Part shown: piece by piece, positions 1-24,504 of the stretch
Layout of the letters: the number at the start of each line of letters is the position of its first letter
Position numbering within the stretch: the first letter of the stretch is position 1
Origin: a virus
Lineage: Duplodnaviria; Caudoviricetes
IMG/VR virus record: IMGVR_UViG_3300033475_000125
Location: 1-27,818 of that record
Length of the DNA stretch: 27,818 nucleotides
Direction: 5' to 3' (one strand)
Notes under the pieces: generated by a model
Told to the model about the DNA's origin: nothing
Seen by the model: the letters and a program-made list of their open reading frames with translations, nothing else
Database searches by the model: none
Program-made: the position numbers and the translations under genes

Positions 1-529
1 CATTGCCGGCCCCGCCACCAAAGGCACTCAGGACGCTACCAAAGCTCGTTGCGGTCCCGGCCGAGCCGGCTGCACCGACGGCAGACGAGCCACCCGTTGA
101 TGCGCTCCCCCCGGTGCCTACCGTTACCGTAACAGTCGCGCCGATGTCGCTGGCCCGGTAACACTTCTCTGCCATCGAGCCACCGCCGCCGCCCGAGCCG
201 GCGCCCCGTGACGTCGCCGCCGCGCCGCCGGCCCCGCTGCCGCCCGAGCCGCCCGCGCCGAACGCCTTGACGCAGACGACCGTTACGCCGGCCGGTTTGG
301 TCCATGTGCTGGTGCCATGCGTGGTGTAGGACGATAGCGACGTGCTGCCGCCACCGCCGCTCGAACTGGTGCCGCAGGAAAACGCCCCGCTGGTCGAATT
401 GTAGTTAAGATGGTTGCCGGCGGTATCGACGCAGGCCGGGAGCTCCCGGTGGTTGACCGGCCCAGTGACCTGGGCGTGCGCCGCAAACGGCAGCAGCAGC
501 CCGAGCCAGAGCAGATGGCGAAGTTTCAT
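1..529 (-). CDS. Glycine-rich tail-fibre-type protein with N-terminal signal peptide (partial, runs off the window)
   Basis: Not in the ORF track; translated by hand from ATG 529 (ATGA overlap with upstream stop): MKLRHLLWLGLLLPFAAHAQVTGPVNHRELPACVDTAGNHLNYNSTSGAFSCG...YTTHGTSTWTKPAGVTVVCVKAFGAGGSGG...VTVTVGTGG...TSFGSVLSAFGGGAG. The TWTKPAG..V.V...GAGG.GG / VTVTVG.GG pattern is the phage glycine-rich domain. Confidence 0.8.
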   Translation of the reverse strand, partial: MKLRHLLWLGLLLPFAAHAQVTGPVNHRELPACVDTAGNHLNYNSTSGAFSCGTSSSGGGGSTSLSSYTTHGTSTWTKPAGVTVVCVKAFGAGGSGGSGAGGAAATSRGAGSGGGGGSMAEKCYRASDIGATVTVTVGTGGSASTGGSSAVGAAGSAGTATSFGSVLSAFGGGAGN

Positions 530-1647
530 CGCGAGATCCATGCGGTTGATGCGGTGGCGAAGAACCGGGCGCTGCCGCCCGCCAGAACGAGCACCGAGGC
601 GTTCGCGGCGCCCCCGTCGATCGTTGCGCCGCTAGGCGGATAGACCGCCAGCGCGTTGGCGCCGGCATTGATGGTCTCATAGCGGTCGCCGGCCGTTGGG
701 GCGGCAGGCAGCACGCCGCCTGTCCCGGGCGCGACGGTGGCGAAATAGCTAACCGCCGCCGTGATGGCATAGGCGCCGGCCTGGGTTGACCCGGTTGCGG
801 TAATCGGCCCATCCCAACCGGCGCCGCGCGACGAAAGAGTGCCCGAATTGAGCAAAAGGCCGGCGCCCAGCGCGGTGACGGTGCCGCCGCTCCAGTCAAC
901 CGTTAGCGTGCCGCTGCCGGTGATCGGACCGCCATGGATACCGCCGCTGGTGGCAATATTCGTGACCGTCCCGCCGCCGGTCGGCGCCGCCCATGCGGGA
1001 TTAGCTGCCAAGCCGCCGGTTTGTAGAAACTGTCCCGCCGTCCCCGGCGCAAGCACCGCCCAGGCGGTGCCGGAACGGAACAGGATGTCGCCCTGCGTGT
1101 TGCCAAGCGCGGCATCGAGCAGCCCCGTAAGCGCCGTTGGAGAAGGCGCGGCAGCGGCGGTGCCGATGTTCGCCAGGAGGTCGCCCGCGGCAATCGCTGC
1201 CAGCGCCACGGTCCCGCTGTTGGTGATCGGGCCGCCGGTCAGCCCGGCTCCGGTCGCTATGCTGGTGACGGTGCCCGATCCACCGCCGCCGCCGGCAACC
1301 GGCGCCCCGGTCTGCGGCGTATAGAGAAAGTCACCGCCCGCAGCGATGATCTGCTCCATCAGCACAGAGATCGCCGTGCCGTTGTCGTTGAACCGGAGGA
1401 CAACCGTATGGGCAACGGTATCGCCATTGTGCAGCCGCACCTCGTTGACCTGCACCGTCTGCCCATAGGCCGGCGCATTGACGACGGTGACGGCTGACGT
1501 TCCGTTTGAAACGGTCTGGCGGGCATTGAGGGCGAAGGTGGTCGTGGTATCCGTGGTGGCGTAGCAAGCGGTAATATCGCAGTCGGTCGTGGCCTTCGCT
1601 TCAGCCAGGACGATCTCAAGCGTGCGGCTGGTGCTATCGAGGATCAT
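526..1647 (-). CDS. Tail fibre-like virion protein
   Basis: Start taken at ATG 1647 (ATGA overlap). G/A/T-rich, with two copies of GTVT.IAT..G..GGPIT.SGT and a GDIL.R.GTAW.VLAPGT.GQFL...G...NPAW fibre motif. Confidence 0.7.
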   Translation of the reverse strand: MILDSTSRTLEIVLAEAKATTDCDITACYATTDTTTTFALNARQTVSNGTSAVTVVNAPAYGQTVQVNEVRLHNGDTVAHTVVLRFNDNGTAISVLMEQIIAAGGDFLYTPQTGAPVAGGGGGSGTVTSIATGAGLTGGPITNSGTVALAAIAAGDLLANIGTAAAAPSPTALTGLLDAALGNTQGDILFRSGTAWAVLAPGTAGQFLQTGGLAANPAWAAPTGGGTVTNIATSGGIHGGPITGSGTLTVDWSGGTVTALGAGLLLNSGTLSSRGAGWDGPITATGSTQAGAYAITAAVSYFATVAPGTGGVLPAAPTAGDRYETINAGANALAVYPPSGATIDGGAANASVLVLAGGSARFFATASTAWISR

Positions 1648-2009
1648 CGGCCAAACCACCAACGGTTGAGCATCGGGATGTCGGTGCCGGCGGCGCCCCC
1701 GGCGCCCGCAAGCGCCGCAATCTCCGCGCCCAACGCTATGTCGGCATTTGCCCGCGCCGTCGCTTCGTTCGTCACCGCTGCTACCCGCGCCGAGGTCTCC
1801 GAGGCGATCTCCCCGCCCAGCGCTATATCCGCGGCGGAGCGGGCCTGCGTTTCCGCCGTCAACGATGCAGAAACGGCCCCCGTGGAGACGCCCACACCGG
1901 AGCCGGTGCGGTTGAAGAGGGCAAGTAGAAACGCCCGCCAGGCCGGCGTCAGATTGCCGCCCTGGTCAACGACCGGGCTGGTCGGAAAGCCGGTGCTGCT
2001 CGCAGGCAT
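1644..2009 (-). CDS. Small tail-associated virion protein with coiled-coil
   Basis: P.SPVVDQGGNLTPAWRAFLLALFNRTG N-terminus, then E..AR..AD heptad repeats. Coupled to both neighbours. Confidence 0.65.
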   Translation of the reverse strand: MPASSTGFPTSPVVDQGGNLTPAWRAFLLALFNRTGSGVGVSTGAVSASLTAETQARSAADIALGGEIASETSARVAAVTNEATARANADIALGAEIAALAGAGGAAGTDIPMLNRWWFGR

Positions 2010-2782
2010 CAGGTCGGCCCGAGGGCTATCCAGCTAAAGCCGGCCGGTCCCAAACCTTGGCCGGTCGTGAATGACTTCGAGGAAAAGACCAGGAAGCCGT
2101 TGATGGTGGCGGCATAGGCGACGATGCCGGCGAACGATGGACCGCTGTTTTCACTTGCAACGACTATCGGCGTCCCGCCGAACGGCGTGGCGAAGGTCAC
2201 CGTGGCGTTGCCGCTCCCGTCGGTAATCCCGGTGCCCATTTGCAGCCGCGTGTTGGCCGGGAAGCCGTTCCCCGCCGCCAGCGCCGCCTCCGCCGCCTCC
2301 GCCCGGGTCGTCTCCGCGGTGATGGCGTTGGCGTTGGTAGTATCCGCCGCCGCGCGGGCCGTAGCCTCCGCGGTGTCCGCGGCGGTGCGGTTTGTCGTCT
2401 CGGCGGAGATTGCCGCCGACAAGGCCGCCAAGGTCGCCGAGTTGTCAACGATGCCCAGCAGGCCCTGCGCCGTTGGGATGTCCGGGGCGATGCAGACCGG
2501 CGCCATCGCCACCGACACCAGGGTGTTGGATAGTTGGTCCCATACCAGGTTGCCGGCCGCATCCGTAAGGATCGTCCGCACGATGCCGTCCGCGTAAATG
2601 ATGCAGCGGCCGGCGGAGTCGAGCACTATAGGGTTGGTGTTGAGCGTGGTGCCGTCCGGGTCCTGCCAGGTAGATTTCGGCGTCGTTGTCCCGGCGACAT
2701 AAGTTGCCAGCTTGCCGCCCGCGTACGGCTTTCCATTCGCATCGGAGAATTGGAGCTCCGCAGGCGGCAGCAGCGCGACCAT
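2009..2782 (-). CDS. Tail fibre/spike protein: N-terminal virion-attachment domain, coiled-coil, gp53-like C-terminal domain
   Basis: QFSDANGKPYAGGKLATYVAGTTTPKSTWQD...NTNPIVLDSAGR is a typical podophage tailspike N-terminus. C-terminus is LQMG...ATVTFATPF...FSWIALG. Confidence 0.75.
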   Translation of the reverse strand: MVALLPPAELQFSDANGKPYAGGKLATYVAGTTTPKSTWQDPDGTTLNTNPIVLDSAGRCIIYADGIVRTILTDAAGNLVWDQLSNTLVSVAMAPVCIAPDIPTAQGLLGIVDNSATLAALSAAISAETTNRTAADTAEATARAAADTTNANAITAETTRAEAAEAALAAGNGFPANTRLQMGTGITDGSGNATVTFATPFGGTPIVVASENSGPSFAGIVAYAATINGFLVFSSKSFTTGQGLGPAGFSWIALGPT

Positions 2783-2791
2783 TTCGATGTC

Positions 2792-4258
2792 CTATGATAG
2801 AGCCGGCTCGGTGACGATCCAGGCGCCTTGGAGGACGGTCTGCACGGGCGAGGACCACTCCAAGGTAAAGACGCGGTCGCGGGCCATGCCCAACCGCTGC
2901 CATTGCACGCTCTTGAGGTATTCGCCGCCCGCGCCGAGGCTTTGCCCAACCGGCGAGCCGAACGCGTGGCCCCTGTCGTCGCTCCATGACAGGAAGACCA
3001 TCGGCGGGTTGAGCACGGCCGCCGCGGGCGGCGCGGCCGGCGCATCGCCATCTCCCCAAATCAACGTACCGTCTGGCGATATACCCAACGCCTCACCCTG
3101 GAACGTATCGGCCGCGTCAGCCGCTGTAGGCAGCTTGTGGATGACGAGCCCAGCATCCCAATAGACCGGCCATTGAACGCCCGCTGCATCCCATGCCGTT
3201 CCCACAACAATCGAGCCGTCTGCCGACACCCCATTGGCCTGCGACGCGGAGCCGGACGGCAGGCCCCCCAGGTTAGTGGCCGCCGTCCCGGTCCATTTAG
3301 TGGCCCATTGGTTGCCGCTCGCATCGGTGGCATAGCCCACCGCGACCGGGGAGCCGCCCACCAGATCGTCGGCACACGCCAGCGCGGAGGCCGAATTGCC
3401 GCCGGGCAGATAAGCCAGCACGTTCGCGACGCCATAAAACGTTGTGGCGGGCTCGCCCCCGGGCGGCCAGACGATCGAGCTGGTCGTCGCCAGACTGTCC
3501 CAATAGACATAACGCTGCACGCCGCCGACCTGAGTAAAGCCGTAGACAATACTGCCATCCGCGAGGCAGAACAGGGAACCGCCGCTTGCCGCAGGCGCCT
3601 CGCCGATGACCGGCGCCAGCGGACGCCCCGCCCCACCGGTCCAGAGACAAGCCACCGTGGTGGCGGTCAGGAACGGCGTGCCAGCCGGTGAAAGCGCGTT
3701 GCCGATAACGATATCGCCCGCCGCGTCACAGCCGAACGCCGATGCATTCGTCGCCGGGTTCAGGCCGCCCAGCGCCGGGTATGGCAGCAGAGACGCCGCG
3801 CCGTTATCCCAAATCGTCGCCTGACTCAGATTGGAGGGGCTCGCGACCACTTCACTGGTGCCGACGATGTAGCGCCCATCGGACGAGACGATGCGGTTTT
3901 GTCCAGAGAAGGCCGCGCTTGTATAACCCGCACCGGGCGACAACGGCCCCCCCGCGGCGCCGCCGCCGGTCCAGCGGATGGCCGACCCAGCCCCGTCGCT
4001 GCCGACGATAACCGACCCGTCCAGCGAGATCGCGACAGCCTGGGTGTTGCCGCCGGCCCCGGCATCCGGAAGCTGGGCGATCGTGGCGCCATGCCATTGC
4101 GCGGCCTTCACACCGCTGCCGCCGGGCAGGTTCCAGCCGACGCCCACCACCACGCGGGTTGCCTGGCTCCCCCCGGCCGGCCTCGCGTCTCCGTCCACAA
4201 TCAGTTGCTGCATCTTGGTCAGCGCGAAGGAATCCCAGCGCAACGCAAAGATGCTCAT
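2792..4258 (-). CDS. HAF-repeat beta-propeller fused to the C-terminal segment of P22 gp10
   Basis: ATG 4258 overlaps the gp10 stop (ATGA). About 8 repeats such as SQANGVSADGSIVVG and QAVAISLDGSVIVG. Ends PPMVFLSWSDDRGHAFG...GEY...VQWQRLGMARDRVFTLEWSSPV...GAWI, the gp10 C-terminal signature. Confidence 0.8.
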   Translation of the reverse strand: MSIFALRWDSFALTKMQQLIVDGDARPAGGSQATRVVVGVGWNLPGGSGVKAAQWHGATIAQLPDAGAGGNTQAVAISLDGSVIVGSDGAGSAIRWTGGGAAGGPLSPGAGYTSAAFSGQNRIVSSDGRYIVGTSEVVASPSNLSQATIWDNGAASLLPYPALGGLNPATNASAFGCDAAGDIVIGNALSPAGTPFLTATTVACLWTGGAGRPLAPVIGEAPAASGGSLFCLADGSIVYGFTQVGGVQRYVYWDSLATTSSIVWPPGGEPATTFYGVANVLAYLPGGNSASALACADDLVGGSPVAVGYATDASGNQWATKWTGTAATNLGGLPSGSASQANGVSADGSIVVGTAWDAAGVQWPVYWDAGLVIHKLPTAADAADTFQGEALGISPDGTLIWGDGDAPAAPPAAAVLNPPMVFLSWSDDRGHAFGSPVGQSLGAGGEYLKSVQWQRLGMARDRVFTLEWSSPVQTVLQGAWIVTEPALS

Positions 4259-5460
4259 CCGCCCGTGCCCGTTTCCAAGTCGGCCAAAAATTGCCGGTAG
4301 AACACCCGCTTTCCATCGTTGAGCAGATGCGGGAACGACCGCAGCCGCTTGATCGGCCTGCCGTTGTCCGTATAGGCGTTCGGGTCGAGCCGGTAGAGAT
4401 TGCCGTTTTGCCAGTCCCCGGCAACGGCAGCGCCATAAGCCAATGTCGCGCATTTGGCACGGTGCCGGTGCTCCGTCCCGTTGGTATCAAGCCAAACGAG
4501 CTCATGCCAAAGCCGGGTCGTGATGTCATAGGCCCAGGTTTTGTCGGCCGTGGGAAAATTCAGCACGTAGAAGGAATGGCCGCCTAGCTGGTAGGTATAG
4601 CCCTCCGCATCGGCGATGGTCGGGTAGGTCGTGAGCTCCGTCTCGATGGCATAGGTCGAGATCCGCGTCGCCTGGTAGGCGGCGCCAGCCAGCACGATCC
4701 CCTGTCCGTAACGATCCTGCTCCAGCCAATAGACCGTGTTATCGGAGGAGGCCACGGAATAGGGCGCGCAGCACCCGTGATCGATGAACACGCCGGGCAT
4801 CGAGCCGAACGGGAAATCGGCCGCCCCGGTGTTATACCAGATCTCGGTCGTTTTCGTGCCGATGAGCCAGATTTCCCGTTTGGCAACGATCAGCGACGCC
4901 AACAGGTCTGAATAACTTTCCTTGTTGGCGAAGAACAGCGGGTCGAATGTAGTAGCGAGGCTGTTGGAGACCTGGAACTGAGGTGTGCCCGGGACGGAGA
5001 ACAACAGGAAGGTATCGAGGTAATCGGCCCGGACTGCGCCGCGGAACGTCCCCGTGGGATCGATGATCGGCGTGAACGCATTCGTTGCAAGCGTAACTTG
5101 CCAGCCGTTCGCGGTGCCATCGACAATAACGAGCTGCAAGCCGTTGTCGGCCATCGATACCGGCGTCGTCAGGCCAACCGTGATGGTGCCCAGCGCGGTC
5201 CAGCTCCAATCCTTGTTGACGAGATACACGCCGTCCCCGGCGACCGCGTAGACCGCGCCGGAGGTGGTCGCCCGGATGCCGCGGATCGGCGCTTGTGGAG
5301 CCGTGGAAAGCAGCGTGAGCCCGGGCGTTGGATAGAGGGCCATAGGCGCCGGCTCGTCGCTCGACGGCGGCAGCGGCTCCGAATAGAGGTTGACCTGGCG
5401 CTGCGCGGCGGCAACGACGGAACGCGCCATATAGGCGCCTCCGGTCAACGGTATCCGCAT
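4255..5460 (-). CDS. P22 gp10-like DNA stabilization/tail hub protein, N-terminal ~400 aa
   Basis: MRIPLTGGAY.ARS...QR.VNLY.E, LYPTPGL, EIWLIGTKTTEIWYNTG, YTYQ.GGH.FYVLNFPT..KTW.YD..T..WHE, ending F..DLETG.G. TGATG coupling to gp4. Confidence 0.9.
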   Translation of the reverse strand: MRIPLTGGAYMARSVVAAAQRQVNLYSEPLPPSSDEPAPMALYPTPGLTLLSTAPQAPIRGIRATTSGAVYAVAGDGVYLVNKDWSWTALGTITVGLTTPVSMADNGLQLVIVDGTANGWQVTLATNAFTPIIDPTGTFRGAVRADYLDTFLLFSVPGTPQFQVSNSLATTFDPLFFANKESYSDLLASLIVAKREIWLIGTKTTEIWYNTGAADFPFGSMPGVFIDHGCCAPYSVASSDNTVYWLEQDRYGQGIVLAGAAYQATRISTYAIETELTTYPTIADAEGYTYQLGGHSFYVLNFPTADKTWAYDITTRLWHELVWLDTNGTEHRHRAKCATLAYGAAVAGDWQNGNLYRLDPNAYTDNGRPIKRLRSFPHLLNDGKRVFYRQFLADLETGTGG

Positions 5461-6206
5461 CACCAACCGCCGGTCTGAAAGCCGGGCGAGGCGGAGGCGG
5501 CAACGGAGCTCCCAAGCCGGCCCGCTACGCCCGCCGGCATAGCCAGGTCGGGGATCTGCGTATTTGCCATCCGCAGTACGTTGACCGCGGCGCGCATGCG
5601 GCCCACCAGGGCCGGCTGCGGCGTCTGGCCATAGTTCATCGCCAGCTCGTTCGCCAACGTATAAAGCATCGCGCTCATGTATTCGGGCGGATAGCCCGTC
5701 AACGGGTCGGTCAGCACGGCGACCGGCGGCAAGGTCGTTTTGCAGAAGATATGCAATTCATAGAGCGTTGCCGGCGGGATCGGCCAGATAAACAGCGTCC
5801 CCGTGGGATAGTCCGACTGGTAGAAGGCCGCGGTCGGAAAGGTCGTCAGGCGCTTGAGGGCGATGGTGTTGTAATCCTCGCGCGAGTCCACGATGCGCAG
5901 GGGATAGTCAACCGGGTTGGGCAGCGACGTGAGCAGCCGGGCGAAGGCACTGTCGATGCGCTCCGGCCGCGTCACGGCGAAGTCTCCGGCCGCCCCGACG
6001 CTGTAGGAGGTCGCCCCGGTCGAAACCAGGACGAGCTCTTGCAGCGACCAGACAAGCCAACGGCGCCGCTGCCATTCGGCCAGGATGTTGATGAGCAGTT
6101 GGAGCCCGGTCTGCGCGTCCTCCGCCAGCGGCGTCTGGCCGACGCCGATGATGGAGGACGTACGCATAGCGAACGCCACCAGGTCGCCCGCGGTGGTTAT
6201 GGCCAT
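5460..6206 (-). CDS. P22 gp4-like head-tail adaptor
   Basis: TAGDLV..A.R...I.GVGQTP.AED...GL..L..IL.EW; PPEY..A..Y.LA.ELA..YG; lies between coat and gp10. Confidence 0.8.
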   Translation of the reverse strand: MAITTAGDLVAFAMRTSSIIGVGQTPLAEDAQTGLQLLINILAEWQRRRWLVWSLQELVLVSTGATSYSVGAAGDFAVTRPERIDSAFARLLTSLPNPVDYPLRIVDSREDYNTIALKRLTTFPTAAFYQSDYPTGTLFIWPIPPATLYELHIFCKTTLPPVAVLTDPLTGYPPEYMSAMLYTLANELAMNYGQTPQPALVGRMRAAVNVLRMANTQIPDLAMPAGVAGRLGSSVAASASPGFQTGGW

Positions 6207-6207
6207 G

Positions 6208-6549
6208 CTAGCGCCACTTCACCCATGCACCGTTGATGAAACGATATTGGATGGCCACGCCGATGGCCCCGGCGGTCGTAGCCACCGCGCTGCCGTGCCA
6301 GTCCTGCACGGTGAGCGCGGTGACAATTTGGCCGAACGACAACTCGCAGATCTGATAGGGCTGCGGGTTGGGCGTCAGCTTGACGGTCAGGGCCGCAATG
6401 GTCCCGGCCGGGTTGACATAAAGCAGCCGGTCGTCCGTCCCGAGGGCGATGGTCGTGCCGGTGAGCGGAGATTGGACGTTGATCGAACCGGTCGCGGTGG
6501 ACCGGTTGATCTCATCCCCGCTGTGGAGCCGCGTGCCGCGGTCGAGCAT
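6208..6549 (-). CDS. Small beta-rich virion protein (possible capsid decoration)
   Basis: ATG 6549 with GGAGG SD, immediately after the coat gene; LYVNPAGTIAALTVKL motif. Function inferred from position only. Confidence 0.6.
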   Translation of the reverse strand: MLDRGTRLHSGDEINRSTATGSINVQSPLTGTTIALGTDDRLLYVNPAGTIAALTVKLTPNPQPYQICELSFGQIVTALTVQDWHGSAVATTAGAIGVAIQYRFINGAWVKWR

Positions 6550-6560
6550 GGCACGCCCTC

Positions 6561-7751
6561 CTAATTCGCTGCCAGGCGGCAAGCGAGCTGCGGGCGGATT
6601 GCCTGGTATCCGTAGAGGATATCGAGGCGGCAGGGGAGCACGTCGTTGTTGATGTCGTACTGCCGGACGACACGTATAGACAAACCGTCCTTCTCAGCCC
6701 GGGACGCCATATCGACGCCGCGCGGCATCACCAGGTCCGCGGTGGCGAAGGTGAAGGCGTCCGGATGATAGCAGATGGAGTTGCCCGTGGGCGTAGAGGC
6801 GGTGCCCGCGAAGGTCACGACGGCGCTGTCCGCAGGCGAGGCGGAGACGTTCTGGAACGCGCCCGAGGTGACGATAGCCGGAGCGAACTGCATCGTCCCC
6901 GCGCCGCCCGTATAGGCCGCGGTAAGCACGAACTGCTGCAACGTCGAGGTCACCGCCTTCGTCTCGGGGTGGACCCTGAAGACGTTGTTGATCGTGAATA
7001 TATCGCCCGCGTTGCCGGCGCCGGTCCCGGTCTTGACCACCAGGCTTGAGCCGGTCTGGTTGGCGCCGTTGACCAAGTAGCCGGCCTCCGCGCCCGGAGT
7101 GAGCTGGCTGAGAAAGGTGTTCTCAGCAAACTCGAAGCCCGCCGTGTAGCCCATCACGCCATCGGTGTACTGGGTCGCGATCCGCTGGCTCGACTGGAAC
7201 AAGCCCTTGAGGCTGTCCACCAGGTCAACGTTGTCCTGGGTATTCAGCCGCACCATCCATTGTTTCGACTGCGGAGTGAGGTTATCGAGCAGAATCTTGC
7301 GCCCGGTCAGCACGTTTTTGAACGACTGCGGAGCTCCCTGCCCGTTGACCTGGTTCCACACCGAATTGACCATTGACAAGGCGTCTGCCTCGACGTTGGC
7401 CGCCAACACGTTGATCGCCGGCTCGATGTAGCGCGCGGCAAAATCGTCAATGTTCAACGTCAATTCCTGGCTGCTGAACGAAAAATCGACGTGTTTCTGC
7501 GTGCTGATGGTCAGCGAGGTGTTCGTTTCGACGCTGTTCTGCACCGCCAGCGTGGGACCGCTTGAAACGGTATACTGCACCGGGTTGCGGATACGCAGCG
7601 TGGTGCCAATCTTCGCCCCGCTTTGCGCGAACGAGTCGTCGTACTGGCGGTTGATGCTGCCGACGAAGTTCAGCTTCTGGTGCAGAATGACCAGGGCCTT
7701 AGCCGTGATCATGTTGATATTGAGAAGGGTATTAGAGGCCACGTCTGTCAT
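6561..7751 (-). CDS. Major capsid protein (P22 coat family)
   Basis: SNTLL...MIT.KAL.IL...L.F...INRQYDDSFA..GAKIG.TLRIR.P; RVVRQYDINNDVLPCRLDILYG. Confidence 0.95.
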   Translation of the reverse strand: MTDVASNTLLNINMITAKALVILHQKLNFVGSINRQYDDSFAQSGAKIGTTLRIRNPVQYTVSSGPTLAVQNSVETNTSLTISTQKHVDFSFSSQELTLNIDDFAARYIEPAINVLAANVEADALSMVNSVWNQVNGQGAPQSFKNVLTGRKILLDNLTPQSKQWMVRLNTQDNVDLVDSLKGLFQSSQRIATQYTDGVMGYTAGFEFAENTFLSQLTPGAEAGYLVNGANQTGSSLVVKTGTGAGNAGDIFTINNVFRVHPETKAVTSTLQQFVLTAAYTGGAGTMQFAPAIVTSGAFQNVSASPADSAVVTFAGTASTPTGNSICYHPDAFTFATADLVMPRGVDMASRAEKDGLSIRVVRQYDINNDVLPCRLDILYGYQAIRPQLACRLAAN

Positions 7752-7940
7752 TTGACTACTCGCGACTATCGCGTTGACTTGGATCGACTGCCCCTCACTC
7801 GGGTGAGCTCTTGGGGCGGACTTCCTGTCGCGAGGGTCGAGTAGTCGCAGCGACGCGGGAGGCAGGCACGACGCAGGGAGAAACCGCTCCCAGCCGGTTG
7901 GCTATTCCATCGAGGCACATCCGCGGCCTATGCTCGGCGG

Positions 7941-8156
7941 ATGAGATACCTCCCGATGATCATCGTGTCGGTCGCGCTTGCCGTTAACATCGGCACCGCC
8001 GCCTTCAACCTGCTTCAGCTCCGCCGCTGGCGGCAGCTAAACCGGGCCTGGCTCGAAATCTGCATGATGGCGTGGTACGCCCGGCACTCGCCGGGTCCGT
8101 TGTCGGTGCTAGCGGAGGACGCCGGGATCAGGCTCCGCAAGCGCCCGTGGGCGTAA
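7941..8156 (+). CDS. Small putative membrane protein, antisense to the head operon
   Basis: 71 aa with N-terminal hydrophobic helix (LPMIIVSVALAVNIGTAAFNLL) followed by basic residues. Fills the gap between scaffold and coat; SD is weak. Confidence 0.5.
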   Translation: MRYLPMIIVSVALAVNIGTAAFNLLQLRRWRQLNRAWLEICMMAWYARHSPGPLSVLAEDAGIRLRKRPWA

Positions 8157-8224
8157 AACTTCGGCCCGATTTCCGTAAAACAAAGCCGGGTTTTGCGTAA
8201 AACCCTCGGGCGTTTCGGTAAAAC
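8151..8224. repeat. Four phased copies of GTAAAAC (22/22/21-bp period)
   Basis: GTAAAAC at 8153, 8175, 8197 and 8218. The third copy is a palindrome GGGTTTT-GCGT-AAAACCC. Confidence 0.85.
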
Positions 8225-8238
8225 ACGGCGGCCCGGCC

Positions 8239-8979
8239 TCACCGGGCGTTGCGCCGCTCCGCCGCCTGCTTGGCGTAGTACTCAACGAGCTGCTGCGTGG
8301 TCGCGGTGGCCTCATTGAAGGCCGCACGCGCCGTCCCGCCGCCTATGGGACGAATGGGCGGCGGCGCCTGGGTTGTCCGCCTGGCGCCCGCGGCAGGCGC
8401 CCCTGCTGGGGCCTTCTTTTCCATCGACGCCGCGAACCGGCCCAGCGCAATCGCCCGCGCCCGCTCGGTGCGGAGCCCGGCGATACGCTCCATCTCCTCC
8501 GGATCGTCGGCCAGCGCCGCGGCAACCGCGGGGCCGTCCGGCGTTTCAATGAGGAGCTGCGCGATCTGCGCGTCCGCGCCCATCTGCATGAGCGCGGCGC
8601 ATTTGTCCTGCCAGTCCGGATAGGACGCCCGGCCGGCTTCATGGAACCGGTCGGCCCGGTCCCGCTCCAACCGTTCGGCAACCTGCTGCTCGACCAGGCG
8701 CGGGATGTCCTCCGGCGTGACCGGAGACGGCTGGCGTGGGGCCTGGGTGCGGGTCCGTTCGAGCTCCGCCGCCAGCCGCGCCCGCTCTTGCTCGCCGGCC
8801 GACAGGCGCGCGGAGAGGGCCGCAATACGCCTATCGACACGGCTCGGCTTTGGCTGTTCGGTCTCGGTGGTCTCAGTCGCAGCGCCCGCATCGGCCGGCG
8901 CGGTGGCCTCCGTCTCAGTCGCAGCAGGTTCGGCCGCCGGTGCGGCCCCGCCCTGCGGGTCGGTGGTAGTATTGCTCAT
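8239..8979 (-). CDS. Capsid scaffolding protein
   Basis: Acidic low-complexity N-terminus, VDRRIA.L..R coiled-coil, C-terminal TQAPPPIRPIGG; upstream of coat. Confidence 0.8.
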   Translation of the reverse strand: MSNTTTDPQGGAAPAAEPAATETEATAPADAGAATETTETEQPKPSRVDRRIAALSARLSAGEQERARLAAELERTRTQAPRQPSPVTPEDIPRLVEQQVAERLERDRADRFHEAGRASYPDWQDKCAALMQMGADAQIAQLLIETPDGPAVAAALADDPEEMERIAGLRTERARAIALGRFAASMEKKAPAGAPAAGARRTTQAPPPIRPIGGGTARAAFNEATATTQQLVEYYAKQAAERRNAR

Positions 8980-9025
8980 GTTCGCGGGTTATCCGTTCTG
9001 TCCGTTGCTGACGGAGGACGTCGCC

Positions 9026-9430
9026 ATGGTTCGAGGGTTAGGAGATTTCCAACGCGCGCAGATCAAGCGCCGGGACGCTAGGATCGATCTGCTGTTCCAA
9101 CATCTGCACAACGCCCTGGATACGTTGCAGGACATTATGAGACGGCCGTACGAGCCACCGGCCCCGCCAACCGCGCCAGCCAGCGCGGCCCCAGCAAAGC
9201 CCGTGGCGGCGGTTGGTGAGCCGGCGGGCACCCTCCCGGAATATGCCACCATCAACCGATGGATCGAGATTTCCGGCATGAACCGCACAGCCATCTATGA
9301 GGCAATGAAGACCGGGGAGCTGAAGGCGATCAAGGTGCGCCGCCGCACTTTGATTGATGTCAAAGCCGGGCTGGCTTGGATGGGAGATCGCGTCTATTCG
9401 CCATCAGGCCGGATTCTCGGGCGTTACTAA
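9026..9430 (+). CDS. Excisionase/AlpA-like (HTH_17-type) DNA-binding protein, antisense in the head module
   Basis: ATG 9026 with ACGGAGG SD. C-terminal YATINRWIEISGMNRTAIYEAMKTGELKAIKVRRRTLID is an Xis-like winged HTH. Confidence 0.8.
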   Translation: MVRGLGDFQRAQIKRRDARIDLLFQHLHNALDTLQDIMRRPYEPPAPPTAPASAAPAKPVAAVGEPAGTLPEYATINRWIEISGMNRTAIYEAMKTGELKAIKVRRRTLIDVKAGLAWMGDRVYSPSGRILGRY

Positions 9431-9725: not shown

Positions 9726-11348
9726 TTACTGTTGGGAGGAGGTCGCCCCGGTCGCGGCGCCGCCGGCAAGCAGCCCGGCGATGCCGTACTTGCGCAGGAT
9801 GCCGATCGTCTTGGCGTCAAATACGACGTAATTGCGCGTCCCCGCGCCGCCTCCGCGCCGCGAGCCCTGGTCGAGATAGCGGATGCCCGGAATGCCGGCC
9901 TGATGCAGGGCCTGCGAGACAAGCGCCGCGGCCTGCGAAGGGTCCGGCTTGGTCGTGCCCACGTATTCGCCGCGCTGCTGCCTCACCATCCCCTGGTAGA
10001 GGCTTGAGCCGTCAGCCGCGTTGTCCCATGCGGTTGGGTAATTCTGCTTGGCGAAGGTTTGCACATTCGGCGGCAATTGGTCGCGCGGCGTGTCCCAATC
10101 CAGGAACGTCGCCGGGTCCGCCGCGATGTTGACCTGGTACATGTTGCCGGGGTTTGTTATCTGCGCGGTCGGCCCCGTTGGGTCGGCGAGCCGCGCCCTG
10201 ATCTCCGCCAACCGCTGGCGTCCCTGAGTATAAATTCGCGCACTCGACTCCGTCGTCGCCTTCGACAGCATCTTGGCAAAATTGGCGTCTTCCGCATCGA
10301 TCCCTTCGAGGGTCGCGCCTCTATCTCCGCCGAAACGGTCCAGATAGTAGGCGGCGCGGTGCGCGATATTGTCGTAATCGTATGGGCCGCCATCAAACTG
10401 AGGCGCAGCCAGCGCGTCCCGGTAGGACCGCGCCGTCCCCTCGTTCTCCGCGAAATAAAGCCCATGCCCATACGCCTGCGCGCCCTCCCCGGTGCCAACC
10501 GCATCGGTTGAGAACTGGTCGAACGAATGCGGCGAGCCGTGGTAAGCGGTGATCCCCGCCGGCTGCATATCCGCCAGCACCTTCATCGCTGCGCTGTCGA
10601 GCCCTAGACCGGGCGCCTGCGGCGTTGCGGCCCCGGTGGCTAGTGGGTTGGCCGCACCGGCCGGCGGCGGCTGTGGGGCCGCAGAGGAGGCATCGATCAA
10701 TCGTCTGAGATCAGCTCCGTTTCGAACCGTCTGGTAATCCCCATTGTAGGCAACGCCGGTTTCCGGCTGGCCGTTGACGATCTTCGCCAGTTGCCGCATT
10801 TGGGGATCTGTCGGTCGGCCTGCGATGTGAATATCGCCGTATGTGCTACCGGCCCCGATGCCGGCGTTAACCCGCGCGGCGCCAGTATCCGCCAGCATCG
10901 CATTAACGCCATCATCCCCGAAACCGTAGCCCAGCGTATTGGCAATATACTCGTGTGTATTGTCGCCGGTTCCTAACAGTCTGCCATCAGGCAAGACATA
11001 CTTTGCCTCGCTAGGGTCACGGGGATTGAAAAACTTGCGACGCTGCGCATCGGTGATCTGCCGGAATATCGGCGCCTTCATCTCTGGGGCCGTCGTGCCC
11101 ATCAGCAGGCCGCCCGCCGTCTGCCGCGCGGCGTCGAGATATCCCGCCTGCGTTGGCCAGCCCGTCGATGGGTCAATCGTTCCTGCGGCAATACCAGCAG
11201 CCTTTTGCTGCGCTACCCAATCACTATACGCCTTGGCGTTGGCAGTCCAGGCGTCCGCCAGCGTGGGAGCTCCGGCCGCCAGCGGGTTGCCGGAAAGCTG
11301 GTTCGGATCGAACGGGCTGGGCGGCGCGAGGAGGTTTGTCCCGCTCAT
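9726..11348 (-). CDS. Multidomain protein with C-terminal ADP-ribosyltransferase-like (ART-PolyVal-like) domain
   Basis: AYHGSPHSFDQF...GTGEGAQAYGHGLYFAE...NMYQVNI...FLDWD...AGIPGIRYLDQGSR...NYVVFD. ATGA-coupled to the portal gene. Confidence 0.75.
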   Translation of the reverse strand: MSGTNLLAPPSPFDPNQLSGNPLAAGAPTLADAWTANAKAYSDWVAQQKAAGIAAGTIDPSTGWPTQAGYLDAARQTAGGLLMGTTAPEMKAPIFRQITDAQRRKFFNPRDPSEAKYVLPDGRLLGTGDNTHEYIANTLGYGFGDDGVNAMLADTGAARVNAGIGAGSTYGDIHIAGRPTDPQMRQLAKIVNGQPETGVAYNGDYQTVRNGADLRRLIDASSAAPQPPPAGAANPLATGAATPQAPGLGLDSAAMKVLADMQPAGITAYHGSPHSFDQFSTDAVGTGEGAQAYGHGLYFAENEGTARSYRDALAAPQFDGGPYDYDNIAHRAAYYLDRFGGDRGATLEGIDAEDANFAKMLSKATTESSARIYTQGRQRLAEIRARLADPTGPTAQITNPGNMYQVNIAADPATFLDWDTPRDQLPPNVQTFAKQNYPTAWDNAADGSSLYQGMVRQQRGEYVGTTKPDPSQAAALVSQALHQAGIPGIRYLDQGSRRGGGAGTRNYVVFDAKTIGILRKYGIAGLLAGGAATGATSSQQ

Positions 11349-16307: not shown

Positions 16308-16484
16308 ATGTTCGACCGTCCCCTCTCACTGCGCGACGGAGTCGCGCAGCCCGGCCCCTCAATTTGGGCCATGATCGCCGGCCGCTTTGGAGCCATCCCG
16401 ATGGTGCTGACGTTCGTCCTCGTTTCTATCGCCGCCGTCGCGCTTGCCTTCGAGGTCCTTTACGCCCTCTCCAAGCTGGCCTGA
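16308..16484 (+). CDS. 58-aa putative membrane protein
   Basis: Below the ORF-track cutoff; AGGAGG SD; MFDRPLSLRDGVAQPGPSIWAMIAGRFGAIPMVLTFVLVSIAAVALAFEVLYALSKLA. Confidence 0.6.
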   Translation: MFDRPLSLRDGVAQPGPSIWAMIAGRFGAIPMVLTFVLVSIAAVALAFEVLYALSKLA

Positions 16485-17785
16485 CCTGCCGCCTCACCGA
16501 CAAGCCTGCCCGCGGCGACCTCCCCAAAGGTCGCCGCATTTGATTCCAGCCGCGCCTCAAGCCCGGTGAACGCCTGCCAGCGCCGCACCGCAACGTCCAC
16601 ATAGGCCGCGTTGAGCTCCACCGCGTGGCAGGCCCGGCCGGTCATCTCCGCGGCAATGATGGTGGTCCCGCTCCCGCTGAACGGCTCATAAACCGCCTGC
16701 CCGGGGGAGCTATTGTTCTCGATCGGCCGCTTCATGCACTCGACCGGCTTCTGCGTTGAATGCCCGGTCTCATTCTTTACGTGGGCGATCTCCCACAGCG
16801 TGCTGGCAGACTTGCTCCCGGCCCAATGCCCGGTTTTGCCCTTCCGCACCGCATACCAGCAAGGCTCGTGCTGCCAATTGTAGTGACCGCGGGAGATGGC
16901 GAACGAGCTCTTTGCCCAAATGATCTGCGACCGCACCTCAAAGCCGGCCGCCTCGATCGAGGACTGCACCGCGGAGGCGTTGACGCCGGCATGCCAGACG
17001 TAGGCTACCTCGCCCGGGAAGAGGCCCCACGCCTCCGTCCAATCCATCCGCCCGTCATTGGAGACCGTGCCAAGGGCGGACGGCGAGAAGCCAATCAAAC
17101 CCTTCCGCGCCGCCTCCTCACGCCAGGCCGGATCATACTCCACGCCGTACGGCGGGTCGGTGACCATCAGGTGCGGCTTCACGCCGGCCAGGGCGGCCTC
17201 AACGGCTCCGGCGTCGGTAGAGTCCCCACAGACCAACCGGTGCCGGCCCAGCAGCCACACGTCGCCCGGGACGGATACGACCGCGGCCTCCTCGGCCGGA
17301 ACGTCATCCGGATCGGTCAGCCCCTCGTTGCTATCCAGCAGCCCGGCAAGCTCGGCGCCCGAGAAGCCGGTCAACGCCAGGTCAAACCCGCCTAGTGCCA
17401 GGTCGCCCAGCTCCAGCTTCAGCATCTCGACGTCCCAGCCGGCGTTGAGCGTCAGCTTGTTGTCCGCCAGCACATAGGCCCGGATCTGCGCCTGGCTCCA
17501 GCCGCGCGCAACCATGACCGGCACCGTACCCAGGCCCAGCTTCTGCGCCGCCAGCACCCGCCCGTGGCCGGCTATGATGCCGTTCGCCTCGTCCACCAGC
17601 ACCGGATTGGTAAAGCCCCATTCGCGTATGCTTGACGCTATCTGCGCGACCTGTTCCGGGCTGTGCGTTCGGGCGTTTCGGGCGTACGGAATGAGCGCGG
17701 CAACCGCCCTCCGCTCCACAGAATCCGCAGGCCACAGGCGGGTCGTTGCGTTTTCCGTTTTAGGGGCGGCAATCCCGACCGGCAC
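16460..17785 (-). CDS. ParB-N domain / N6-N4 DNA methyltransferase fusion
   Basis: LIPYARNARTHS...IAGHGR (ParB-N); TDPPY, HSTQKPVE, EPFSGSGTT (beta-class amino-MTase). GTG 17785 chosen because of a GAGG SD. Confidence 0.92.
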   Translation of the reverse strand: MPVGIAAPKTENATTRLWPADSVERRAVAALIPYARNARTHSPEQVAQIASSIREWGFTNPVLVDEANGIIAGHGRVLAAQKLGLGTVPVMVARGWSQAQIRAYVLADNKLTLNAGWDVEMLKLELGDLALGGFDLALTGFSGAELAGLLDSNEGLTDPDDVPAEEAAVVSVPGDVWLLGRHRLVCGDSTDAGAVEAALAGVKPHLMVTDPPYGVEYDPAWREEAARKGLIGFSPSALGTVSNDGRMDWTEAWGLFPGEVAYVWHAGVNASAVQSSIEAAGFEVRSQIIWAKSSFAISRGHYNWQHEPCWYAVRKGKTGHWAGSKSASTLWEIAHVKNETGHSTQKPVECMKRPIENNSSPGQAVYEPFSGSGTTIIAAEMTGRACHAVELNAAYVDVAVRRWQAFTGLEARLESNAATFGEVAAGRLVGEAAGQASLERA

Positions 17786-17954
17786 AGGTTTGACCTCGTA
17801 AAACAAAACGGCGGCCCTCCGCAGAGAAACCGCCGCAACAAACCGCAATCTAGCTATTGACTCCCATGATTCGCAGGCATCCGTCAACATCGAAACAGAT
17901 GAAACCTTCCCCGCCCTGCGCTACAGTTGGCGCCGCCAACAGTGGGGAACAGCA

Positions 17955-23700: not shown

Positions 23701-24504
23701 TCATAAGCCGCACATCCCAAGGCAGTCGTTGCCGAAGAGGTCGAGTTGCGCAACGGATAGGTCAACCTGATCGAGCGGCACCCGATCGCGGTGCATGTAT
23801 TCGACGGCCCGCATGCCGCGGTTGTTGCCTACCCGTAAGAGCGCATCAGCCGCGATGGCGTCCGCCCATTCGTCCGGCCGGTTGTCGCGCATGTCGCGCC
23901 AATAGGCGTTGTCATGGAACGGGCACCCGATGCAGGCCGATTTCATCGGTTGCGGGTAGCCGTGCCGTTTCAGCCATAGCAGGCAATCGTGCCGCCGCAT
24001 CCGGGCATCGATCAGCGGATAGAGGTTGACCATGTACCGCTGTTTGGCGGACCGCATCCGGTGCGCCTCATCGAGCGATATCCCAAGCATGACTTCCACC
24101 GCGCCGGCGGGAATGTGCGCGTGCCCAGGCTTACCCAATTCGGCGCGGATCGCGTGCATGATCGGCGTCAACTTGTATTCCGATGAGCATTGGCGCCGGC
24201 CCATGCCTTCGGTACCGTCAGGGTTGACCGTATGCCACGGGATCGCCGCAAACCGGCCTCCCGTCGTATTGCGACGGTCGCGCAAGCCGTCGCGGATGTT
24301 GCCTTGCGCCACGCGCCGCACAGGAAACGGCAGAACCGTCTCCAGCCAGTCCAGATGCCTATAGACCGCGGCCGGCTCCCATCCGGTATCGGCGAAGATC
24401 GCGACGTCGGGAAACGGCGCCTCTTGGTGGGCCGCCATCAGGGCAAGCGTGGTCGATTGGACACCGGCACCGAGCGACAACACCCGGAGCACCGCCGCGC
24501 TCAT
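23701..24504 (-). CDS. PAPS-reductase-like (PP-loop adenine nucleotide alpha-hydrolase) protein with Cys motifs
   Basis: VLSLGAGVQST, IFADTGWE, RQCSSEYK, GISLDE, YPLID, KSACIGCPFH, C-terminal DCLGMCGL. Confidence 0.8.
   Translation of the reverse strand: MSAAVLRVLSLGAGVQSTTLALMAAHQEAPFPDVAIFADTGWEPAAVYRHLDWLETVLPFPVRRVAQGNIRDGLRDRRNTTGGRFAAIPWHTVNPDGTEGMGRRQCSSEYKLTPIMHAIRAELGKPGHAHIPAGAVEVMLGISLDEAHRMRSAKQRYMVNLYPLIDARMRRHDCLLWLKRHGYPQPMKSACIGCPFHDNAYWRDMRDNRPDEWADAIAADALLRVGNNRGMRAVEYMHRDRVPLDQVDLSVAQLDLFGNDCLGMCGL

Follow-up and report, generated by a model that had tools for sequence, protein, structure and literature searches.

A P22-like tail-hub gene divided between two overlapping reading frames around a HAF-like propeller

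The divided hub gene and its propeller cargo

The virus record IMGVR_UViG_3300033475_000125 (Duplodnaviria; Caudoviricetes) was analysed as one stretch of 27,818 nucleotides (the window), and its completeness is estimated at ~70 %. On the minus strand, between positions 2,792 and 5,460, the gene for the tail hub, a protein of the P22 gp10 / Sf6 gp8 class, is divided into two open reading frames (ORFs), the second of which carries a large beta-propeller ahead of the last hub residues. Pfam and PHROG profiles revealed a P22-type structural module on this strand with terminase, portal (PF16510), scaffold, coat (PF11651), adaptor (phrog_637), both hub frames and fibre-like genes. The hub gene stands behind the gp4-like adaptor within this head module, as in the gp10/gp8 class, and the reading frames of terminase, portal, coat and adaptor are all open. 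The features are collected in Table 1.

Table 1 Features of the hub locus (aa, amino acids; pLDDT, predicted local distance difference test)
Feature	Position	Strand	Basis
Head-tail adaptor, P22 gp4-like	5460..6206	-	phrog_637 'head-tail adaptor Ad3', E 2e-8; PF11650 weak, E 0.005
ORF A, tail hub N-chain (P22 gp10 / Sf6 gp8 class), 401 aa	4255..5460	-	phrog_578 'head closure Hc3', positions 5-399 of 486, E 2.8e-96
ATGA stop/start overlap of ORF A and ORF B	4255..4258	-	sequence; bridged gap-free by one 151-base X1 contig
ORF B, cargo plus hub C-fragment, 488 aa, own start codon	2792..4258	-	phrog_578 positions 405-470 matched by residues 418-484, E 3.5e-9
Cargo, HAF-like 8-repeat beta-propeller, ORF B residues 1-406	3041..4258	-	AlphaFold2 model; WD40-type PDB matches; ESM Atlas match
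Pro/Ala linker, ORF B residues 407-417	3008..3040	-	sequence; pLDDT <50 at residues 412-415
Hub C-fragment ('plug'), ORF B residues 418-488, last four to five platform-sandwich strands	2792..3007	-	phrog_578 405-470
Tail-fibre-like gene, directly downstream of ORF B	2009..2782	-	phrog_1396 tail fiber, E 0.003; phrog_26190, E 6e-12; PF21882, E 6e-4, below cut-off

The two ORFs jointly cover the phrog_578 profile, ORF A from near its start and ORF B from just behind the point where ORF A leaves it. This profile alignment bears out what a first-pass annotation, made by a model from the sequence alone, had claimed: that a gp10-like ORF stops at ...FLADLETGTGG, and that the remaining gp10 C-terminus stands at the end of the next ORF. 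The hubs of the gp10/gp8 class are single chains; the window has two ORFs in different frames, which is known at the DNA level. ORF A holds a six-blade propeller and the first strands of the platform sandwich, and its stop lies in the loop behind the conserved F.ADLE.G strand. It is 79 % identical to the hub of the intact relative L162 (protein P0111). A further profile, phrog_19101, matches the C-fragment only. A Pfam profile search gave no match for ORF A, ORF B or the intact P0111, for which a precomputed collection column lists PF11134.

The ATGA overlap likely couples translation of ORF A and ORF B; a 4-nt overlap of the same kind is found where the window's portal gene meets the next gene. 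Met1 of ORF B aligns with Met1 of the cargo protein P0003 (44 % over 431 columns), whose own start in the distant locus L171 also lies in an ATGA overlap.

In the AlphaFold2 model the first 406 residues of ORF B form a beta-propeller with high confidence (mean pLDDT 88.0), the first strand of which spans residues 2-9. About eight HAF-type repeats had been proposed in the first-pass annotation. Eight units are indeed recognised by a Gly motif (residues 37, 84, 131, 184, 238, 306, 351 and 400; a ninth match, at 217, is off-register), and the cargo shares with HAF-family proteins the tandem pattern of ~45-aa repeats and the propeller fold, but it scores below the cut-off of the HAF family profile TIGR02913 (14.9 vs 22.65 bits). 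Among other cargo proteins P0009, P0010 and P0020 pass this cut-off and P0003 reaches 22.1 bits. The best PDB structure matches are generic WD40-type propellers (Z 17-19; top match Z 19.1, root mean square deviation 4.2, 308 aligned) at 8-21 % identity. Matches in a viral structure library have a template modelling score (TM) of at most 0.41, and the ESM Atlas match is a cluster named 'HAF family extracellular repeat protein' (TM 0.73). By approximate count ~31 of 109 matches were weak and HAF-named or HAF-shaped. Apart from its score, the cargo differs from HAF-family proteins in being fused to a phage structural fragment, and no signal peptide is visible in the alignment by eye. An NCBIfam match to TecA (14 bits vs a cut-off of 220) was rejected as chance. 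A Pro/Ala linker similar to that of ORF B precedes the C-fragment in P0112 of locus L184.

The model of the intact P0111 (pLDDT 88.9) matches the hubs of Pan3 (9VYG), P22 (gp10, 8U10, TM 0.82) and Sf6 (gp8, 7SG7, TM 0.78). The interrupted beta-propeller with an apical platform domain, characteristic of these hubs, was looked for and found in this intact relative. The break site of the window corresponds to loop 402-417 of the model (pLDDT <50), between strands 387-397 and 421-427, with five strands behind it, which places the break inside the predicted apical or platform domain. In Sf6 the N- and C-terminal extensions of the hub form the apical domain, which inserts between adaptor subunits (PMC9728967); because of this, the C-fragment is by analogy likely needed for tail assembly.

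Within ORF B folded alone, the C-fragment is the least confident part (block pLDDT 57-83). Complex prediction of ORF A with the C-fragment gave an ipSAE of 0.86, and the best of three controls gave 0.00; the mark applied to such scores is reached by 116 of 157 solved complexes and by 2 of 215 mismatched pairs. Contacts agreed by at least 88 % across runs and partner pLDDT was at least 79. In the predicted complex the C-fragment strands form pairs with residues 372-376, 391-394 and 42-43 of ORF A. This result may reflect likeness to solved single-chain hubs rather than binding, because ORF A and the C-fragment are the two halves of a solved fold. The folds of both parts and their association are thus predictions.

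Plain, fused and split hubs among relatives

Viral, metagenome and genome scans, limited to the best-scoring 80 loci per scan, yielded 168 loci. The hub was intact in 136 and split in 22, one of which (L082) is the record of the window itself; contig ends truncated 7 more, 2 were incomplete and 1 gave no match. Merging the 148 loci with enough coverage at 97 % left 99 distinct forms, window included, of which 70 are plain, 15 have an in-frame insert of at least 100 aa in the same loop (fused forms) and 14 are split. Loci with fewer than 330 hub residues covered, such as the splits L115 and L121, and those cut by contig ends do not enter this set. The 'plain' call of L053, a locus at a contig end, is doubtful. 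A scan with the C-fragment returned 85 loci (65 plain, 7 with inserts and 13 split), several of the splits repeating earlier records; L247, where the break lies inside the C-fragment and lacks a start, was excluded as error-like. The viral scan with ORF B brought up only one unsplit relative, found through the C-fragment. Of the proteins with a C-fragment that were retrieved, 24 of 81 are without hub core. The C-fragment is also matched by 18 GenBank phage records, at best with 45 % identity; two of these, phiAX1 and PAE2, have it inside one gene of ~475 aa.

A prediction of the first-pass annotation, that other phages would have the same split with different passengers, came true. In L183/L184 the N-chain is 74 % identical to that of the window and ends at the same stop site with an ATGA overlap, followed by a different cargo of 200 aa; L261/L267 break at the same place and carry yet another cargo. 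The N-chain of most other splits also ends in a domain of ~190 aa, and the same junction is fused in L039. Cargo ranges from HAF propellers (P0009, P0010 and P0020) over beta-rich domains without family match to none at all (L126); cadherin-like cargo above cut-off is found in L013 and L097 and fn3 in P0005. Fused hubs with HAF-type propellers in frame are P0013, P0015, P0018, L015, L062 and L117. In L126 (273-1800), a minimal split, the ORFs overlap by TAATG and the second measures 89 aa; at its start it has runs of Pro5 and Tyr7 over a TAT repeat, a tract that may be prone to slippage.

An in-frame ATG or GTG lies at -4..0 of the stop in 13 of the 14 distinct splits, compared to 26 % of simulated errors (P ~3e-7 if independent). 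Relative to the first ORF, the frame of the second is -1 in 20 of the 22 split loci, 0 in L097 and +1 in L017. In L017 a gap of 34 nt with a second-frame stop and a GGGAG motif precedes the start. In L220 and L245 the same protein begins one base apart in frame. No single recoding event appears to fit all these frame relations, while separate starts do.

The C-fragment of the window keeps 32 of the 33 columns conserved in unsplit relatives, and mean retention of conserved fragment columns is 0.925 in split, 0.937 in fused and 0.953 in plain forms. The pooled dN/dS ratio of the fragment was 0.17 for nine split pairs vs 0.16 for seven unsplit pairs, a value that includes the pair of window and L184, saturated at synonymous sites (pS 0.75). 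Alignment A1 has 46 rows, one of which is a cargo protein, P0023. These values indicate that the C-fragment is under purifying selection in split forms.

On hub-core trees the plain, fused and split forms are intermingled. Twelve changes of the split state are needed among 99 rows, and 13-14 among 48 rows in bootstrap trees, of which 10 are forced by strong branches. The split label does not cluster on the hub tree (71/500 and 342/500 shuffles were as low), in a test that is blind to gain versus loss. The window is sister to the plain L162 (100/97 support), and their subclade also includes the tail-less splits L184 and L195. Near-identical hubs with different cargo or state were found in three pairs, L035 and L040, L039 and L105, and L024 and L089. 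Cassette exchange by recombination between two conserved flanks is the simplest reading of these patterns; the tree gives no direction. The window and its relatives show that the split of the hub gene is real, that the second frame has its own start, that the fragment is conserved and that cargo is exchanged.

Three loci extend this picture. L195 (2425-4216) holds a hub N-chain, then a free gene of 365 aa without Pfam match, then two tandem C-fragment ORFs, one with an extension of ~90 aa (3468-3980) and one bare (3980-4216). It is the only locus with two C-fragments among 255 with a fragment match, and its extension may dock the free 365-aa protein. L171 (2719-6953) carries the window's propeller cassette in a hub that is broken at another loop (phrog_578 334 / 341), inside an inserted beta-rich domain, and reads as a case of nested insertions. 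In P0005, a protein on a contig of 3159 bases, a related propeller cassette is joined to fn3 and to positions 543-710 of the 712 of phrog_376, which suggests the same design in a different nozzle family, the phrog_376 tail protein. A viral scan with P0005 gave no match, and its upstream gene is therefore unseen.

In-frame inserts also occur elsewhere in the hub. Inserts of ~85-150 aa in the hub propeller were seen near residue 133 (L012, L017, L020-L023, L032, L034, L050 and L053) and near residue 167 (L060 and L069), and L062 has one of ~300 aa after residue 367.

A two-chain hub and its alternatives

The window encodes a real, conserved and probably functional two-gene hub with an exchangeable passenger. 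The full proposal, in which the hub consists of two chains and its C-terminal plug presents an exchangeable domain that probably binds the host surface, is given a probability of about 0.72, and its two-chain part taken alone is very likely. The first-pass annotation had already proposed a two-chain hub with a C-terminal docking tag; the relatives support it and the complex prediction is consistent with it. According to this proposal coupled translation through ATGA would yield roughly matched amounts of both chains. The plug strands would complete the platform sandwich of ORF A and so rebuild the hub, the two chains associating before or during binding to the adaptor ring, which six such dimers would occupy. 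The adaptor encoded next to the hub is the likely binding partner of the platform domain. Up to six propellers would then project from the neck region of the tail. The break loop should face outward, given that it tolerates in-frame inserts of 240-590 aa. Kinds of cargo and their turnover suggest that the propeller, working next to the fibres, may bind a glycan, an exopolysaccharide or a surface protein of the host. The arrangement likely arose when a self-starting cassette recombined into an insertion-tolerant loop between two conserved flanks, and later recombination between these flanks would swap cargo and flip the gene between plain, fused and split.

Several points weigh against this interpretation. 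The C-fragment is slightly less conserved in split than in plain forms, and the proportion of 14 splits in 99 forms derives from best-scoring subsets and should not be read as a natural frequency. That the break loop points outward is itself deduced. Neither the PDB structure matches nor the viral structure library yielded a ligand, a catalytic motif or a lectin match for the propeller. The ATGA overlap of the window alone is weak evidence for a real split, since 680 of 2610 simulated single-base errors (26 %) placed an ATG or GTG in frame within -4..+1 of the new stop; the clean overlap at 4258-4255, offered in the first-pass annotation as a mark of evolved coupling, is there but has less force than was given to it. 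Read support at the junction is thin. It consists of one short contig of run X1 (151 bases, spanning 4174-4324) with depth 2.1 and three substitutions, and these differences may be errors. No sequencing run contained the stretch, and no RNA run was listed for it. Run X1 shares 0.06 of the window's words, only short pieces of it could be placed, one of them bridging the junction, and it may not be independent of the window's source. A further record, L001, is 100 % identical over hub residues 1-300 and ends short of the junction. Finally, a second hub gene outside the incomplete record is conceivable; no second copy was found in ten records searched, two of them 92 % and 100 % complete, nor in the window.

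A single-base mistake of sequencing or assembly, breaking a gene of 890 codons, is a highly improbable origin of the split. The source is a metagenomic contig, errors do occur in these collections, as L247 shows, and the overlap could arise by chance as often as simulated. However, the X1 contig crosses the junction with three substitutions and no gap (two of its listed differences are silent in the ORF A frame upstream and the ORF B frame downstream and change residues in the other frame), the same break position with ATGA recurs in L183 and L184, and homologous cargo proteins have their start Met at the same place or within a few residues of it. The relatives are stronger evidence against error than the X1 contig. 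An equally slight chance is left to a hub gene disrupted by an inserted gene in a defective, decaying element. The nearest relative is unsplit, with the support given above, and the split is possibly recent. Against decay stand the 32 retained columns, a C-fragment that follows the cargo in the cargo's own frame in all splits that have a start, dN/dS of ~0.2 for both parts and the open frames of portal, coat, terminase and adaptor. A programmed -1 frameshift (in some relatives alternatively readthrough) would give one hub of ~890 aa with an inserted propeller, either as the only product or next to the two-chain form. The open -1 frame upstream of the ORF B start, which had been taken as a hint of fusion or error, does exist (76 codons from stop to start), fused forms with HAF-type propellers in frame are known, and the -1 relation prevails among split loci. 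However, across 11 genes of the window 895 of 3896 codon positions (23 %) have a -1 frame that stays open for at least 65 codons, and the prevailing relation is the one that ATGA/TGATG coupling yields. No stable RNA structure spans the junction (z -0.90), no canonical XXXYYYZ slippery site was seen by eye in the 60 bases before the stop, and a shift far upstream would cost the conserved F.ADLE.G strand. One conserved frame relation is not found among the relatives, given the 0 and +1 relations and the 34-nt gap with its second-frame stop, and the cargo model opens with a strand right behind the start. As weaker evidence, no hub fused to the window's propeller subtype was among the 4 matches of 7999 longer-protein candidates, one of which, P0155, proved to be a bacterial repeat protein. 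Recoding is accordingly considered improbable as the main route, and a low-level fusion product may be formed in the window itself.

A different question is whether the propeller binds the host. Split and re-association could both be real with a propeller that acts as a passenger, as a stabilising or shielding decoration, or as an adhesin for soil particles or biofilm matrix. This is unlikely, though less so than the explanations above. It agrees with a propeller without ligand or enzyme match, with the cargo-free closest relative L162 (79 %), with the retention of separate fibre-like genes, and with the position of the platform domain at the adaptor, away from the tail tip (PMC9728967). Against it, the cargo mostly consists of extracellular binding-type folds (cadherin-like, fn3, HAF), and it differs between hubs that are 0.03-0.06 substitutions per site apart. 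Cargo turnover between near-identical hubs is the pattern expected of receptor-binding modules.

The known hubs P22 gp10, Sf6 gp8, Pan3 and Pam1 (PHROG 578; 8U10, 8EAP, 7SG7, 9VYG and 7EEQ) have the fold in common with the intact P0111, and are single chains of 440-472 aa without cargo. Compared to P22 gp10 and Sf6 gp8, the window has its last ~70 hub residues on a second protein, behind a propeller of 406 aa. The Sf6 hub is a hexamer on a dodecameric adaptor (PMC9728967). In the Pseudomonas phage A1002 the nozzle-rope protein gp39 supplies strands that are missing from the nozzle-base protein gp42 (PMC13730344). In A1002, as is predicted for the window, an N-terminal nozzle chain of ~400 aa is completed by strand complementation from a second protein with a long N-terminal extension. 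The break, however, is in the fibre-dock region, gp39 contributes two part-blades and the platform (~150 aa), its extension is a rope binding 11 fibre dimers, and by numbering gp40 and gp41 lie between the two genes (PMC13730344). In the window the break falls inside the platform after strand 387-397, the hub propeller is whole, the plug measures ~70 aa, the genes overlap and the extension is folded and exchangeable; the break of L171 is closer to the A1002 type. Six gp30:gp31 heterodimers rebuild a canonical nozzle in the Xanthomonas phage PhiXacm4-11, with radial extra beta-sandwich domains, two of them built by strands of both chains (bioRxiv 10.64898/2026.02.16.706137). This nozzle is of the T7 gp12 type with the break among the extra domains, and the text seen contains no minimal plug and no survey of exchangeable cargo (10.64898/2026.02.16.706137). 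Two genes that jointly cover the canonical nozzle, the hallmark of both phages, are also present in the window, without a further hub in the ~70 % recovered. Pa223 has a single-chain hub with a fibre-attachment loop (10.1101/2025.06.11.659172); two further sources serve as background only (PMC10386132; 10.64898/2026.09.03.749273).

The split-nozzle principle was thus already established in 2026 by the structures of A1002 and PhiXacm4-11, which limits the surprise of the window's split. New are the break inside the platform domain, the minimal plug of 70 residues, the rapid flips between plain, fused and split forms, and the duplicated plug. A literature search that mostly did not reach subscription journals and included no supplements turned up no earlier description of a gp10-type hub broken in its platform, of a plug of 70 residues or of phage tails with HAF cargo.

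If the two-chain hub with its displayed propeller is true, the hub of a P22-like soil phage would be more than a conserved connector: an exchange point for surface domains, with a plug of ~70 residues as attachment. It would predict where host range is determined in a clade without a cultured member among the 18 GenBank records that match the fragment. Many phage-contig proteins annotated as 'hypothetical' or 'HAF extracellular' would be virion parts, as the C-fragment proteins without hub core suggest, and a minimal split point would be available for tests of hub assembly or for domain display on a phage tail. More tentatively, and with somewhat less than an even chance, the last ~70 hub residues may form a reusable plug for six tail sockets, by which any plug-ended gene would be displayed. 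Multiple plug proteins, as in L195, would then give mixed tails with tunable occupancy, and self-starting cassettes would move between hub loops and between hub families, as suggested by L171, where the cassette precedes a longer gp10 fragment, and by P0005. Soil podophages would then have, next to fibres and spikes, a third means of varying their host range, and the plug would serve as a natural tag for non-covalent display.

Gene neighbourhood and further observations

The gene directly downstream of ORF B is fibre-like, and its profile matches indicate that the phage retains fibre genes in addition to the hub cargo. The host is likely a soil alphaproteobacterium, because contigs of a Rhodopila metagenome-assembled genome (MAG) and of an Acetobacteraceae MAG carry unsplit hubs, the former the closest one (79 % identical); MAG bins can be wrong.

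Extra genes stand between adaptor and hub in the closest unsplit relatives, eight small ones in L008 (1335-4999) and one of 625 aa in L162 (2121-3995), and the neighbourhood is therefore variable even where the hub is whole. Between portal and scaffold of the window, a minus-strand gene of 540 aa (9726-11348) has an ATGA overlap with the portal gene. It has a weak ART-PolyVal match (E 1.5e-4, below cut-off) and a match to phrog_873 'endolysin', and was read as a polyvalent-type protein. A plus-strand frame amid the structural genes (8705-9430) shows a weak, excisionase-like HTH_17 match at its C-terminus (E 0.02). Two minus-strand genes, for a ParB-fused DNA methyltransferase (16460-17890) and a PAPS-reductase-like protein (23701-24504; phrog_424), are of common phage accessory types.

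Among the unsplit hub genes, in-frame TAG codons were seen in L164, L042, L044, L045, L047, L049, L119 and L122. L164 is locus 1-9215 of CP007444.1, the complete genome of the soil gammaproteobacterium Dyella jiangningensis SBZ 3-12. Most long structural frames of L164, L047 and L049 hold one to eight in-frame TAG codons and end in TGA or TAA, and the aligned residues are often Gln. These loci likely represent a phage clade in which TAG is recoded to Gln, with a prophage in the Dyella genome.

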